Both the position numbers and the translations under genes were made by a program. Shown piece after piece: positions 56,548 through 61,734 of a DNA stretch of 64,000 nt. Location of the stretch: the NCBI GenBank assembly GCA_049509455.1, contig JBEKZX010000001.1:32001-96000 (forward strand), written 5' to 3'. The stretch comes from Conexivisphaerales archaeon. Its GTDB lineage: Archaea; Thermoproteota; Nitrososphaeria; Conexivisphaerales; DTJL01. The notes under the pieces are model-generated. The model was given only the letters and a program-made list of their open reading frames with translations. It ran no database searches and was not told the DNA's origin. Position 1 is the stretch's first letter. Each line of letters begins with the position of its first letter.

Positions 56548-57807
56548 ATGAGACAGCTTCGTTTCGTCGAGGTGCAGAGGGGGGAGCGTCGGAGGGAGGT
56601 GAAGTGTCCCGTCTGCCATGGCATGTCGTCGCTCTGTCGTGAGAATTACTGCCCCTACTTGGCGAAGCTCAAGGCCTTCCAGTCGGTCGCTCGCCTAGAG
56701 AGGATGGAGAGGGTCTTCGGCGCGTCGCCTCCCTCGGTCTTCGTCGGCGAATATGGATACCCGAAGGTGTTGGCCGGCCCCCTGGTGCCACCGCTTCCCC
56801 ACGAGGATACTGCACTCATGGACATGCCTGAGAGGTGGGTGGACAAGAGTTTCGAGGAGCTCCTGCGATACCGCCTGAGCCTAGTGAGGGGGAAGTACAC
56901 CATGGAGGTGGGCGAAGCGGTGAACCCTTCGCGGATCCTCTCTGCAACCCAGGAGGTTATAATGGCCTCCAGGCCCACCGACGTGGAAGCCGTCCTAGGG
57001 AAGAGGCCCGTGTTGACCGAGATCTTCAACTCCAGGAGTCCTCCCAATGGGCCCTCCGCACCGCTGATCAGCGTCAAGCTGGCGGAGAACCCCTCGGTCT
57101 CCGTTAGGGTTGAGAGGGTGGTGAGCGACGGCGACTTCAGGGCCGCCGAGGCGATACCCGAGCTCTTCTCCGGCGGCGTCAGGCAGAGCCAGATCACGAA
57201 GCTCCTCAGCATCGGCCTCCTCGGCGTCAAGAAGCGCAGGCGGCTGGTCCCCACCGAATGGAGCATCACAGCCGTCGACGATATTCTCGGAAAGGGGCTC
57301 ATCGACAAGGTGATGGACTTCTCCGAAGTGGACGGCTTCACCTTCTTCAGCCACCAAGCGCTGGGGAACGCCGTTTGCGTTGTCTTCCTTCCCTCTCCCT
57401 GGATGTTCGAAGGGCTGGAGGGTTGGGTGACCTCCGACCCCCGGGTCTATTCGGACCACGAGCTCTCCTCCGGTCGGAAGACCTACCCCACCAACCTCGC
57501 CGGGGCCTATCACGCCGCGAGGCTTCCTGTCTTGGAGTACCTGGCGGGACTGAGGAGGCAGGCCGGGGCCCTCGTCTTCATGGAGGTCCATCCTGAATGG
57601 ATCCCCCTCGGCGTCTGGCGCTTCCGCGAAATCGCCCGGAAGGCCTTGAGGCGGCCTCCCGTGGAGGCAGAAGACCTCAATCACGCTCTCCGGCTGGTCG
57701 CCGGAGAGCTCTCCATCCCCATCGAGAAATGGGTCCGTGCTTCCAGGGTAATCCCGTACTTCCTCCATCAGACCAAGCTCGAGGATTTCTTCCGCTCGAA
57801 GGGTTGA
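56548..57807 (+). CDS. nreA: Nre-family PCNA-interacting DNA repair protein
   Basis: N-terminal CxxC..C..C, SPPSVFVG.YGYPKV, RRRLVPTEWSITAVD, C-terminal PIP box QTKLEDFF. Confidence 0.9.
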   Translation: MRQLRFVEVQRGERRREVKCPVCHGMSSLCRENYCPYLAKLKAFQSVARLERMERVFGASPPSVFVGEYGYPKVLAGPLVPPLPHEDTALMDMPERWVDKSFEELLRYRLSLVRGKYTMEVGEAVNPSRILSATQEVIMASRPTDVEAVLGKRPVLTEIFNSRSPPNGPSAPLISVKLAENPSVSVRVERVVSDGDFRAAEAIPELFSGGVRQSQITKLLSIGLLGVKKRRRLVPTEWSITAVDDILGKGLIDKVMDFSEVDGFTFFSHQALGNAVCVVFLPSPWMFEGLEGWVTSDPRVYSDHELSSGRKTYPTNLAGAYHAARLPVLEYLAGLRRQAGALVFMEVHPEWIPLGVWRFREIARKALRRPPVEAEDLNHALRLVAGELSIPIEKWVRASRVIPYFLHQTKLEDFFRSKG

Positions 57808-58259
57808 AAGGCTCATCTCGAGACGGGAGCCATATCCTGAGCGGTGAACATCCTGGGAATCCGCGGAAACCATCGTGCGGAGGCGCTCGACTCGCGCCTT
57901 CGGAATCAAGCCAATGAAGATGGGAGGCTTGTTGGCCTCTATGAGATGACCATCTCCGCGCCCTCCAAAGGAAACCTTCCCCAGTGCCTGGATGAACAGC
58001 CGGCTGATCAGCCTTCTTGTTCGTCGCCTGCCGTCCAACGCCCCAAGGTTCCTTGCGGTCGTCTCGACAGCCTTGCTGGCCTCCTCCCTCTTCGGCAGGT
58101 ACCCTTCGTGGACCACGTTCCATCTCATTGAGGACAGCTTCCTAAGCCCACCCACGTTCACTCCGGCGGCGTCACGATAGGCGCTCCTCCGCCTCCCTCA
58201 GGAAAGGGTCCTTGGGAGGCCAGAAGCTGGGGGCAGATGTTCGCATTTCCTGGGGGAGA

Positions 58260-58775
58260 TTAACGGAATCTCGTCTTCAGCGCGAGTGTAAGAGGTATCC
58301 CCAGCCCCACGCAAGCCACCAGCTCCCCGGCGAGGACCGATGCGAAGGAGACGACGGGGTCGGTAGAGTAGACCCACCCCAGGAGCACCACCCCTATGAG
58401 GAAAGCCACGATTACGCTGGCTTGAAGGGCTGCCACCACGAGCGATCCCAGAGACTGGTTTCTGCCTAACCAGTAGGCGAGCGAGCCCACCACGGCGTTG
58501 GCGATCGTCCCGATGAGTAGGTCGGGGAAGCCGTAGGGCGATATGAGGTTGGATATCATGACTCCCAGAGTCACGCCCAACACCCCCGCCACGCCCACCC
58601 TCCTGTTCCAGGGTATAGGCAGGAGCGCGTCGGTAATCCTCAACTGCAGGGGTCCAAAAGCGATGGAGGCGATGGCATACGTCCCTATTCCATACACGGC
58701 CGCAATGAGGGCAGTCTGGGCTAGCAGCTCAGAGCGAGGCTTGCGACGCCCTGCCATTACATTCTTAGTGTCCAC
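58260..58775 (-). CDS. queT: QueT-family transporter (ECF S-component-like)
   Basis: ALIAAVY, FGPLQLRITDAL, GVTLGVMISNLISPYG.PDL.IG; SD GGGAGG 8 nt upstream of GTG. Confidence 0.85.
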   Translation of the reverse strand: MDTKNVMAGRRKPRSELLAQTALIAAVYGIGTYAIASIAFGPLQLRITDALLPIPWNRRVGVAGVLGVTLGVMISNLISPYGFPDLLIGTIANAVVGSLAYWLGRNQSLGSLVVAALQASVIVAFLIGVVLLGWVYSTDPVVSFASVLAGELVACVGLGIPLTLALKTRFR

Positions 58776-58845
58776 ACTCTATTCCTCCCAACCGGGGTTT
58801 CTTGAGCGGAACGGTGGGAGGCCCCACCACCCGCCAGAGCCGGTC
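58776..58845 (-). promoter_or_regulatory. structured 5' leader with anti-SD (riboswitch-like candidate)
   Basis: Hairpin GGTGGG/CCCACC competes with pairing of CCTCCCACCG to CGGTTGGGAGG over the SD; TATA TTTAATATAA at 58858-58867. Confidence 0.5.
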
Positions 58846-59013
58846 ATCCTCCGCCCATTATATTAAACTTGACTTACTCCGACCGTCGGCCCGCCTCCGA
58901 GTCGAGAAAACCTCTGCAAACCTGGAGCTCCGCGAGTTTTCACGAGTGATTAATCAAATGTTTTAAAAACACATAACTCCACATCCTCTCCGTAAAAGGA
59001 GTCCTGCGTCTCA

Positions 59014-61734
59014 TTGGCTACCAAAGACCTGCTTCGACGGAAGTTCGCGGAGGACTACTCGAAGTACTACAAGGTCGCCCTCTTCAGCGAGGAGGGCTTC
59101 GCCCGAAGGCAGTGCAGCAACTGCGGCAAGTTCATCTGGACGACCACCGAGGCGATGCTCTGCCCCGACTGCCAGGGGTACTCCTTCATCGGCAGGCCCC
59201 CCACCAGCGTGAGGAAGGACTACACCACCGCCTGGGCCGCCATCGAGAAGTATTTCGTCGATCGCGGCCACACGAGCGTCAAGAGGTACCCCGTCGTGGC
59301 TCGCTGGAGGCCCGACCTTTACTTCACCGTCGCCTCCATAATCGACTTCCAGAGGGTGGAGAACGGGAAGATAATCTTCGACTTCCCCGCCAACCCCCTC
59401 ATCATCCCCCAGATGTGCTTGAGGTTCAACGACATCGAGAACGTCGGCGTGACCGGCCGCCACTACACGTCCTTCTGCATGGTGGGCCAGCACGCCGTGA
59501 ACAACGCCCACGGATACTGGAAGGACAGGACCATCGAGCTGGACTACGGGCTTCTCACCGGGCCTTTCGGCGTCCCCAAGGATGAGATAACCTTCGTCGA
59601 GGATGTCTGGCTGGGCTACGGGGCCTTCGGCTATTCTCTGGAATACTACGTGAGGGGCCTTGAAATCGGGAACGCCGTCTTCACGGAATTCGAAGGCTCG
59701 CCCGAGAGCTACGTCACGATGCCCCACCCCATAGTAGACATGGGCGCAGGCTTGAATCGTTTCTCCTGGATGACTCGGGGCACCCCCACTAGCTACGAGG
59801 CCGTCTTCGGTCCAGTTTACGACCATATCATCAAACGGCTGGGGCTCCACCCGGACTCGAAGCTATTGACGAGGTACTATTCCCTCGCCGGCTCACTGGA
59901 CGTCACCGAAGTGCAAAATCCCGTCGCCGCCAAGGAGGCCGTCGCCAAGAAGTTGGGCCTCACTGGCGAGGGCCTTGAAGCGCAGATCGCTCCAATGGAG
60001 GCGGTCTTCTCTCTGCTCGACCACAGCAGGACGTTGCTCTTCGCCATAGTCGACGGAGCGCTCCCCAGCAACGTGGCCGGCGGGTACAACCTCCGGGTCC
60101 TGTTCCGCAGGGCCCAGAACTTCATCGAGGAGTACGGCTGGGACATAACGCTGGCGGAGCTGGCTTCGCTTCATGCCGAGTTCCTGAAGCCCATGTACCC
60201 GGAGCTAGCCGAGGGCGTCGCCTCGGTGGAGGAGATATTTGACGTCGAAGAGAGGAGGTACGACGCCAGCAAGGCTCGCGTCTCGTCCATTGTCCAGCAG
60301 CTGCAGAAGTCCAAGAAGTCGCCGTTGCTAGAGGACCTCATCCGTCTCTACGACAGCGAGGGGGTCACACCGGAGCTCCTCAAGGAGAACGGCCTCTCCA
60401 TAACGGTCCCCTCCGATTTCTACATGAAGGTCACGGAAAGGCACATCGTCCAGAAGCAGGCGGAGGAGAAGCCCCTCTATGACACTTCCGGGCTGCCCAG
60501 GACCAGGCCGCTCTTCTACGAAGAGAGGTCACTCTTCGACTTCGACGCAAAGGTGCTCCGGGCCTTCCCGGGCGACGCCATCGTGCTGGACCAGTCGGCC
60601 TTCTATCCACGCTCGGGCGGCCAGGAGCCCGACTTGGGGACCATCGAGGGGGTCCCAGTGGTAGATGTCATCAAGTACGGCGACGTCATAGTTCACGTCT
60701 TGAAGGGGAGGGCCCCGGCAGAGGGGGCGACGGTTCACGGAAGGGTGGATCAGGTAAGGAGGGGCATCCTCATGCGCCACCATACGGCCACACATATCGT
60801 CAACGGGGCCGCGAGGCAGGTCCTGGGCCCGTGGGTCTGGCAGCATTCGGCCTACAAGGACATCGACAAGGCGAGGCTGGACATAACCCACCACAGCCAC
60901 CTAACCCGCGAAGAGATGCTCAAGATCGAGGAAGCGGCGAACCAGGTGGTCCGTGAGAACATCCTTGTCGACCTCCAGGTCCTTCCGCGAAGCGTGGCTG
61001 AGCAGAAATACGGCTTCAGGCTGTACCAGGGAGGCGTCATCCCCGCGAAGGAGCTCCGCGTCCAAAAGATCGGCGACTTCGACGTGGAGGCCTGCGGAGG
61101 GACCCACTGCCAGCGGACCGGGGACGTGGGCTACATCAAGCTCCTCAAGGCTGAAAGGCTGCAGGACGGCGTTGAACGCCTCGAGTTCGCGGCCGGAGGC
61201 CCCGCTGTGAAATACATGGCCGACGAGGAGTCGAGGGTCCTGAGCGTCGCCGAGCAGCTCCAGACTCAGCCTGATCAGATAACGACGGTGGTCGGCTCGC
61301 TGAAGGACGGGAACGACCAGCTGAAGAAGAGGTACAAGAGCATTTCGAAGGAGCTATCCGCCCAGATGGCCGCCAATCTCAACTCCATTTCGGAGGACAT
61401 CGGAGGGATTCGCCTCCTCTTCCTCGATGCCGACTACTACGACGATCAGGCGCACATTACCATGGGCGAGCAGATAGTCGAGAAGAGGCCAGACGCCATC
61501 TACGTCGGTGCGGCCAAGCTCAACGGCAGGTGCAGGATAATCATCTTCGCCGGCGAGAAGGCCAGGGCGGCAGGCGTGGACGCCTCCTTACTCGTCAGGG
61601 GATCCTCGACGCTGCTGAAGGGCTCCGGCGGCGGCACGGCCAAGATGGCCCAGGGGGGCGGCGAGATACCCGTCACGATGCAGCCCCTGAGAGACCTTAT
61701 AACTCGCCTCATAAGAGAGGCAACCAAACAGTGA
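59014..61734 (+). CDS. alaS: alanyl-tRNA synthetase
   Basis: YPVVARWR, FTVASI, QMCLRFND, editing motifs HHTATH and CGGTH, C-Ala GGGT..MAQGG. Confidence 0.97.
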   Translation: MATKDLLRRKFAEDYSKYYKVALFSEEGFARRQCSNCGKFIWTTTEAMLCPDCQGYSFIGRPPTSVRKDYTTAWAAIEKYFVDRGHTSVKRYPVVARWRPDLYFTVASIIDFQRVENGKIIFDFPANPLIIPQMCLRFNDIENVGVTGRHYTSFCMVGQHAVNNAHGYWKDRTIELDYGLLTGPFGVPKDEITFVEDVWLGYGAFGYSLEYYVRGLEIGNAVFTEFEGSPESYVTMPHPIVDMGAGLNRFSWMTRGTPTSYEAVFGPVYDHIIKRLGLHPDSKLLTRYYSLAGSLDVTEVQNPVAAKEAVAKKLGLTGEGLEAQIAPMEAVFSLLDHSRTLLFAIVDGALPSNVAGGYNLRVLFRRAQNFIEEYGWDITLAELASLHAEFLKPMYPELAEGVASVEEIFDVEERRYDASKARVSSIVQQLQKSKKSPLLEDLIRLYDSEGVTPELLKENGLSITVPSDFYMKVTERHIVQKQAEEKPLYDTSGLPRTRPLFYEERSLFDFDAKVLRAFPGDAIVLDQSAFYPRSGGQEPDLGTIEGVPVVDVIKYGDVIVHVLKGRAPAEGATVHGRVDQVRRGILMRHHTATHIVNGAARQVLGPWVWQHSAYKDIDKARLDITHHSHLTREEMLKIEEAANQVVRENILVDLQVLPRSVAEQKYGFRLYQGGVIPAKELRVQKIGDFDVEACGGTHCQRTGDVGYIKLLKAERLQDGVERLEFAAGGPAVKYMADEESRVLSVAEQLQTQPDQITTVVGSLKDGNDQLKKRYKSISKELSAQMAANLNSISEDIGGIRLLFLDADYYDDQAHITMGEQIVEKRPDAIYVGAAKLNGRCRIIIFAGEKARAAGVDASLLVRGSSTLLKGSGGGTAKMAQGGGEIPVTMQPLRDLITRLIREATKQ

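Follow-up and report, generated by a model that had tools for sequence, protein, structure and literature searches.

The leader preceding queT in the DNA analysed here, a 64,000-nt stretch of a Conexivisphaerales genome hereafter called the window, is probably a representative of a conserved cis-regulatory RNA, widespread in archaea, that forms the 5' end of queT mRNAs and acts as a preQ0-type riboswitch. That the element is a conserved device for translational control is very likely, and the comparative sequence data make it likely that it senses a 7-deazaguanine directly. In its most specific form, which we tend to favour with some reservation, the motif would be an H-type pseudoknot sensing either preQ0 or 7-carboxy-7-deazaguanine (CDG), would constitute the first riboswitch class known so far from archaea alone, and would govern both the salvage and the synthesis of archaeosine precursors, with a flipped variant that may have shifted specificity.

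The motif is located in a 238-bp intergenic region between two divergent genes, alaS, which starts with TTG at plus-strand position 59014, and queT, the ORF of which lies on the minus strand. A previous reading of this DNA, made from the sequence only, had placed a TATA box, two alternative folds, a Shine-Dalgarno (SD) sequence and a GTG start codon ahead of queT on the minus strand, and all of these elements are present at the positions given below. It had also named the downstream gene, and this assignment is borne out by Pfam: the 171-aa product of queT (58260-58775, minus strand), an ECF-type transporter S component, matches PF06177 over residues 18-167 with 93.6 bits (E = 1.7e-26), well within the family gathering threshold of 33.7. 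The host genome encodes two homologues of EcfT (CbiQ). The GTG start codon (58773-58775) is positioned 8 nt past the SD, and its GAGUG context is identical in three congeners. The queT promoter contains a TATA box, TTTAATATAA, at 58858-58867 of the minus strand, which corresponds to -32 to -23 from the first base of P1, the outer helix of the motif. When 106 homologous loci were aligned on the first P1 base, an A/T peak was observed at -32 to -25, reaching 82-92% A/T at -31 to -29 and lying downstream of an A-rich stretch at -37 to -35. The usual distance between the centre of an archaeal TATA box and the transcription start site (TSS) is about 26 nt, and the conserved TATA-to-P1 spacing hence places the predicted TSS just upstream of P1, at 58836-58839 on the minus strand (0-4 nt before P1). 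The leader RNA is therefore predicted to be the extreme 5' end of the queT mRNA, with the anti-SD strand inside the transcript, and the GACCGG strand (58845-58840) would fall outside it. The optional GACCGG/CCGGUU closing helix proposed in the sequence-only reading is thus abandoned, being both upstream of the predicted TSS and not conserved in congeners, and the caveat attached to it, that the TATA spacing might exclude the GACCGG strand, is supported by the conserved TATA peak. The leader before queT comprises 60 bases, of which about 52 nt span the region from P1 to the SD.

Several features of the surrounding sequence were recorded alongside. A second A/T-rich box, TGTTTTAAAAAC, is found on the plus strand (window 58940-58975), some 40-50 nt ahead of the alaS TTG, and probably serves as promoter of the divergent alaS, in which case it occupies one intergenic region together with that of queT. 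Downstream, a minus-strand ORF of 388 aa (56995-58161) overlaps a plus-strand ORF of 419 aa (56548-57807) and looks like a GC-rich shadow frame; if so, queT appears to be monocistronic and convergent with the plus-strand 419-aa gene. Sequencing runs containing DNA of the host organism are peat and wetland metagenomes only, and no RNA run is listed among them.

The leader can be partitioned into two helices that compete for one strand and a third that accommodates either of them. On the minus strand, the 5' strand of P1, GGCGG (58831-58835), pairs with its 3' strand, CCGCU (58805-58809), as assigned by pair counts and RNAalifold. An invariant GU (58829-58830) sits atop the P1 5' strand and starts loop L1, followed by a G-rich strand, GGUGGG (58823-58828), which forms the 5' strand of the inner hairpin P2 (a putative anti-anti-SD) by pairing with 58813-58818 at -11.6 kcal/mol. 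The C-rich anti-SD strand CCUCCCACCG (58812-58821) is common to P2, as its 3' strand, and to the pseudoknot helix, as its 5' strand. Two bases, UU (58810-58811), make up L2, which connects the pseudoknot helix to the 3' strand of P1, and a linker, L3 (CAAGAAACCC, 58795-58804), the conserved A-rich end of which is followed by CCC, leads to the 3' strand of the pseudoknot, CGGUUGGGAGG (58784-58794). This last strand, defined through cognate duplex energies and compensatory variants, includes the SD GGGAGG (58784-58789). In fold A, P1 (58835-58831 with 58809-58805) is combined with P2 (GGUGGG 58828-58823 with CCCACC 58818-58813) for a total of -18.7 kcal/mol, and this combination is also the nested minimum-energy fold of the leader in the window. 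In fold B, CCUCCCACCG (58821-58812) pairs with CGGUUGGGAGG (58794-58784) over 10 bp, with U58791 bulged, at -15.8 kcal/mol, to which P1 can be added, so that the two states are of comparable stability. Because P2 and fold B use the same C-rich strand, they are mutually exclusive. The sequence-only reading had extended this exclusivity to the whole of the two folds; it holds for the inner hairpin P2 and fails for the outer GCGG/CCGC helix, which is compatible with fold B and together with it makes an H-type pseudoknot. Taken alone, the leader sequence folds no better than its dinucleotide shuffles (z = -0.13, with 87 of 200 shuffles as good), and hence the case for the structure rests on comparative data.

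In order to survey the distribution of the motif, a covariance model (R1) was built from 14 sequences with P1 as its only structure. A near-identical leader precedes the orthologous queT in four congeners, and an AT-rich family belonging to the same class also carries the motif, the GC-rich sequence of which contrasts with its surroundings there. Matches to R1 were obtained in 15 of 151 genomes of the host's own class, with none among the 81 genomes of a large own-class family of ~1.6-Mb genomes, in 28 of 151 genomes of its phylum, in 21 of 151 genomes of the phylum of a Promethearchaeota MAG, and in 94 of 151 Bathyarchaeia. No credible R1 match was found in 151 genomes of the phylum of Halobium; five matches of 23-28 bits in this group were rejected, having neither the motif nor queT downstream, and two weak Bathyarchaeia matches (L245, L246) were likewise rejected on reading. 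The motif is almost always present as a single copy per genome, and in the host the one copy scores 79.8 bits against 15.4 bits for the second-best R1 match. A loose pattern scan of genome contigs returned full copies in one Bathyarchaeia MAG and one Promethearchaeota MAG. The loose DNA pattern, which covers the 3' half of the motif, yielded mostly chance bacterial matches, the full motif being seen only at two archaeal loci (L026 and L102), which were also the only ones of 100 loose-pattern loci to exceed 55 bits under R1. One further locus (L063, 28 bits) was discarded as a false positive, since it falls within a long ORF, which by eye we take to be TolC-like. Conservation in orthologous leaders, on which the sequence-only reading had made its proposal depend, is accordingly strong and extends across at least two archaeal phyla.

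The consensus structure was derived from 101 unique sequences. P1 consists of 5 bp that are canonical in 94-100% of them; its closing pair occurs in six types (GC 39, AU 37, GU 6, CG 5, UA 4, UG 4), and its innermost pair, G58831:C58809 in the window, is G:C in 93 sequences and C:G in 7. The GU on top of the P1 5' strand is present in 101/101 unique sequences, and RNAalifold pairs its G with U58810 as a G·U in 100/100. The three bases ahead of the P1 3' strand are GUU in 87/101 and GCU in 12/101 sequences. The L3 linker is 8 nt long in 67/101 and ends in AAAC (70), AAAU (18) or AAAA (12 of 101), followed by an invariant CCC. A K-turn reading of the GUGA sequence was ruled out, the opposite strand being devoid of GA. 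The crossing helix between the C-rich strand and the SD tail measures 7-11 bp, and all 7 core pairs change on both sides within the family, as can be read directly from the variants CCUCCCA:UGGGAGG (the window), CCUCGCA:UGCGAGG, UUCCGAC:GUCGGAA, GCCCCCU:AGGGGGC and CCUCCCU:AGGGAGG. The covariation score of P1 plus the pseudoknot is 0.200, versus 0.082 for shuffled columns (reached in 0/500) and at most 0.044 for slid partners, and the cognate duplex of C-strand and tail averages -16.0 kcal/mol, versus -14.2 kcal/mol for permuted tails (z = -8.3, reached in 0/2000 permutations). These pair counts and shuffle statistics come from a covariance-model-derived alignment of related genomes, which leads them to overstate significance, and they are to be read as indicative and not as formal tests. 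RNAalifold, run on the model-derived alignment, returned P1 plus the G·U pair only, with no crossing helix or P2. Both the outer helix and the anti-SD:SD helix thus covary, which the sequence-only reading had made a condition of its proposal, and the covariation supports an H-type pseudoknot composed of P1 and the anti-SD:SD helix, with a G/U-rich L1 of ~9 nt, a UU L2 and an A-rich L3. A conserved, structured 5' leader with covariation-supported helices is what is generically found in riboswitches.

The evidence for P2, the hairpin between L1 and the C-strand, is weaker than that for P1 and the pseudoknot, and points to it with moderate strength: 79.6% of alignment cells are paired, 4 of 6 pairs show double changes, and cognate strands outperform chimeric ones with z = -2.9. 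Since the G-rich strand is a near-repeat, a second register, GGUGG 58831-58827 with CCACC, is also possible; variants such as GGAGG:CCUCC and GA(G)CGG:CCGUC favour the local hairpin. In one subclass the helix reads UUCCGAC:GUCGGAA and contains no SD (L179, L182, L242 and L252, in genomes G263, G235, G528 and G470). Here the helix abuts the AUG, and the start codon follows within 2-3 nt in two of the four loci, which suggests that in these leaders the pseudoknot would mask the start-codon region and not an SD.

All ORFs within 1.5 kb of the 106 motif loci were clustered to survey neighbouring genes. The motif is directly followed by queT in 101/106 loci, and in 25/106 queC starts at the queT stop (QueC cluster, 218-231 bits). 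Other neighbours are unrelated and lineage-specific, each occurring beside at most 11 of the 106 loci. Among the five loci lacking queT, one carries a frameshift (G001), one reaches a contig end (G282), two have a gene for a 234-aa membrane protein, and one (G008) has the motif ahead of a radical-SAM gene, the five best NCBIfam matches of which are all QueE (E from 1e-16 to 1e-26) and which is named QueE in the source record. The motif also precedes queE on four further contigs, representing three distinct sequences, with QueE proteins 68-70% identical to that of G008; this arrangement belongs to a separate clade, and the queE association may stem from a single lineage. The controlled genes hence encode an importer, the synthase converting CDG to preQ0 and the synthase of CDG itself, so that the regulon falls entirely within the 7-deazaguanine pathway, and the attachment of one motif to different genes of one pathway (queT, queT-queC and queE) is a further generic trait of riboswitches. 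The sequence-only reading had suggested as ligand a 7-deazaguanine or another vitamin; the genes under the motif point to the former and away from the latter.

The gene content of individual genomes bears on which 7-deazaguanine is transported. The host encodes an archaeal-type tRNA-guanine transglycosylase (TGT, 266 bits) and a cluster of queD-like, queC and folE2 genes that is not preceded by the motif (contig C97, 13826-15921; L258:2826-4921). No QueE was found in this genome, at 95.5% completeness, with two queries (the G008 QueE protein and TIGR04322). Taken together with the queT-queC operons in 25 other loci, this suggests that archaeal QueT may import CDG. In further genomes, G051 and G283 among them, there is no credible QueC or QueE, yet the motif before queT and TGT are both present.

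A variant class was noted in which the top P1 pair is flipped, reading GCGCGUG...GUUGCGC instead of GCGGGUG...GUUCCGC (L241, L243, L244, L248, L249, L250 and L255, in Bathyarchaeia genomes G496, G555, G576, G532, G501 and G558). Genome G496 has one standard and one variant copy, each ahead of a QueT paralogue, and G555 has two variant copies. The flipped-pair class might have an altered ligand specificity. At two loci (L248:370-1071 and L250:370-1071, both on the plus strand) the variant motif is followed not by queT but by the gene for the 234-aa multi-pass membrane protein mentioned above. This protein has no Pfam or NCBIfam match, and in language-model features it falls near clusters labelled 'ECF transporter S component' (score 0.94), a lead and not a finding; it could be a new 7-deazaguanine importer. 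Other irregular loci include the congener G001 (L154 / L006, L020, L022), where the motif is intact and the queT frame is in three pieces with TAG and TGA codons, so that queT is a pseudogene there or else the assembly of this 59%-complete MAG contains errors, and two loci (L156 and L157, in G039 and G057) where a short, truncated QueT-like N-terminus follows the motif, with a complete QueT homologue ~115 nt further on. A second locus with motif and queT (L159) is present in G039.

In bacteria, preQ1 riboswitches control queT by means of a pseudoknot in which the SD is buried (PMC5372724, PMC11625349). PreQ1-II was discovered before queT itself, and preQ1-I adopts an H-type pseudoknot fold whose L3 is A-rich (PMC11625349, PMC5372724). 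A 2024 review of the preQ1 family describes three classes with only bacterial examples and never mentions archaea. Covariance-model scans with Rfam agree with the earlier observation that the leader shows no match to the preQ1-I, TPP, FMN or ZTP consensus: no preQ1 family matched the window at 58600-59100 at E≤10 or 16 diverse motif loci at E≤1, and no family of Rfam 15 matches the motif, weak miRNA, snoRNA and T-box matches being noise or lying elsewhere in the loci. The closest parallels are with preQ1-I (RF00522, types I-III), which is likewise an H-type pseudoknot with a 5-bp P1, an A-rich L3 after the P1 3' strand, a 3' tail containing the SD that pairs back into the loop, and conserved U-containing dinucleotides atop P1, and which also controls queuosine-precursor genes at the level of translation by hiding the SD (PMC11625349). 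In keeping with this topology, P1 and the crossing helix of the archaeal motif covary, and the linker ends in AAA(C/U/A) in 100/101 sequences. The differences are nonetheless substantial. The motif spans ~52 nt versus ~34 nt for preQ1-I, its second helix has 7-11 bp versus 3-4 bp, and its L1 is ~9 nt, G-rich and capable of a competing hairpin, whereas that of preQ1-I is 2-3 nt. In preQ1-I, the cytosine that confers specificity is unpaired, follows an A or U and immediately precedes the P1 3' strand (PMC11625349), whereas the equivalent C58809 pairs with G58831 (G:C 93, C:G 7). PreQ1-I is bacterial, whereas the motif is archaeal, and in archaea preQ0, not preQ1, is the relevant precursor; nor does the motif match the preQ1-I covariance model.

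PreQ1-II (RF01054, the COG4708/queT motif of Streptococcaceae and Lactobacillales) resembles the archaeal element in its position directly before queT, in acting on translation only and in using the SD as one strand of the pseudoknot helix (PMC11625349, PMC5372724). It folds, however, into an HLout pseudoknot comprising P1-P4 and a U-rich triplex, as opposed to P1, P2 and one crossing helix here, and the two share neither a covariance-model match nor sequence similarity nor a domain of life. In preQ1-III (RF02680), the anti-SD in a hairpin loop also docks onto a 3' tail with the SD, but this RNA has ~100 nt, five helices and an aptamer apart from its expression platform, and again there is no covariance-model match. 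Given the lack of model matches, the sizes, the helix lengths and the paired cytosine, the motif falls outside all three preQ1 classes. No archaeal queT or preQ0 riboswitch is described in the literature searched, and the motif is apparently new to it.

In the mechanism we propose, P1 and P2 would form first during transcription and the mRNA would be translated, the G-rich L1 serving as an anti-anti-SD that would keep the SD free in the unbound state. An accumulating 7-deazaguanine, most likely preQ0, would then bind at the junction of P1 and the pseudoknot, in a predicted pocket lined by the invariant GU, UU and AAAC-CC residues, with the A-rich L3 occupying the minor groove of P1, as it does in preQ1-I. 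The ligand-bound pseudoknot would be stabilised and block 30S binding (an OFF switch), shutting off the QueT importer and, in other genomes, QueC or QueE. The pocket is a conjecture, because the C that takes the place of the specificity base of preQ1-I acts like any other paired base of P1. The anti-SD helix, moreover, is strong on its own (mean -16 kcal/mol) and may therefore form without any ligand, as would be expected of a constitutive structured leader that senses nothing and sets mRNA stability or a fixed level of attenuation, or of a thermosensor. Explanations of this kind are hardly credible, given that a fixed attenuator needs no two competing, covarying helices, and no near-invariant unpaired junction residues or restriction to a single pathway either. 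It is also very unlikely that the motif works in the opposite sense, as an ON switch in which binding of the ligand to the GU/GUU internal loop that separates P1 from P2 would stabilise the hairpin and release the SD. The invariance of that internal loop, some covariation in P2 and the status of P1 plus P2 as the nested minimum-energy fold in the window would all agree with such a switch; it would, however, leave the invariant A-rich linker and CCC unexplained in a tail that would be single-stranded, there is no physiological logic in a pathway product inducing its importer and a biosynthetic enzyme, and the preQ1 switches known from queT turn it off (PMC11625349).

The remaining explanations retain the pseudoknot and differ in what reads it. 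Structure and gene association fit a protein as well as a metabolite, and the leader might be bound or modified by the archaeosine TGT, by another preQ0 enzyme or by an RNA-binding repressor; the host encodes the archaeal-type TGT noted above, and a bacterial TGT modifies an mRNA in vitro (PMC1950534). We consider a protein reader unlikely, as queT and queC have no other recurrent companion in the 106 loci, and as the motif is very compact and its invariant unpaired junction nucleotides and A-rich L3 resemble those of small-molecule pseudoknot aptamers. A riboswitch for a ligand other than preQ0, be it CDG, preQ1, the archaeosine base, guanine or another purine, is a minor possibility. It draws on the co-transcription of queC, which converts CDG to preQ0, with queT, on the host's combination of queD-like, queC and folE2 genes with no QueE by two queries, whereby QueT may import CDG, and on the flipped P1 variant before paralogous transporters, which could differ in specificity. 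Against it, preQ0 is the end product that the archaeal TGT inserts, and thus a logical feedback signal for the importer, QueC and QueE, and genomes devoid of a credible QueC or QueE, such as G051 and G283, nevertheless keep motif, queT and TGT.

Few riboswitch classes are, to our knowledge, known in archaea, and those are shared with bacteria. If the preQ0-type riboswitch proposed here is confirmed, it would rank as an abundant RNA sensor: about 60% of the sampled Bathyarchaeia carry the motif, and its range would cover Bathyarchaeia, Asgard archaea and non-ammonia-oxidising Nitrososphaerota, the first two of which are largely uncultured. Archaea would then be using SD sequestration by a pseudoknot for metabolite control. 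Its small size makes the RNA directly accessible to biochemical and structural work, and it would provide a compact ligand-responsive part for archaeal genetics. For the biology of these organisms, it would mean that many of them salvage environmental 7-deazaguanines via QueT, and it would offer a direct handle on how they acquire the precursors of archaeosine.
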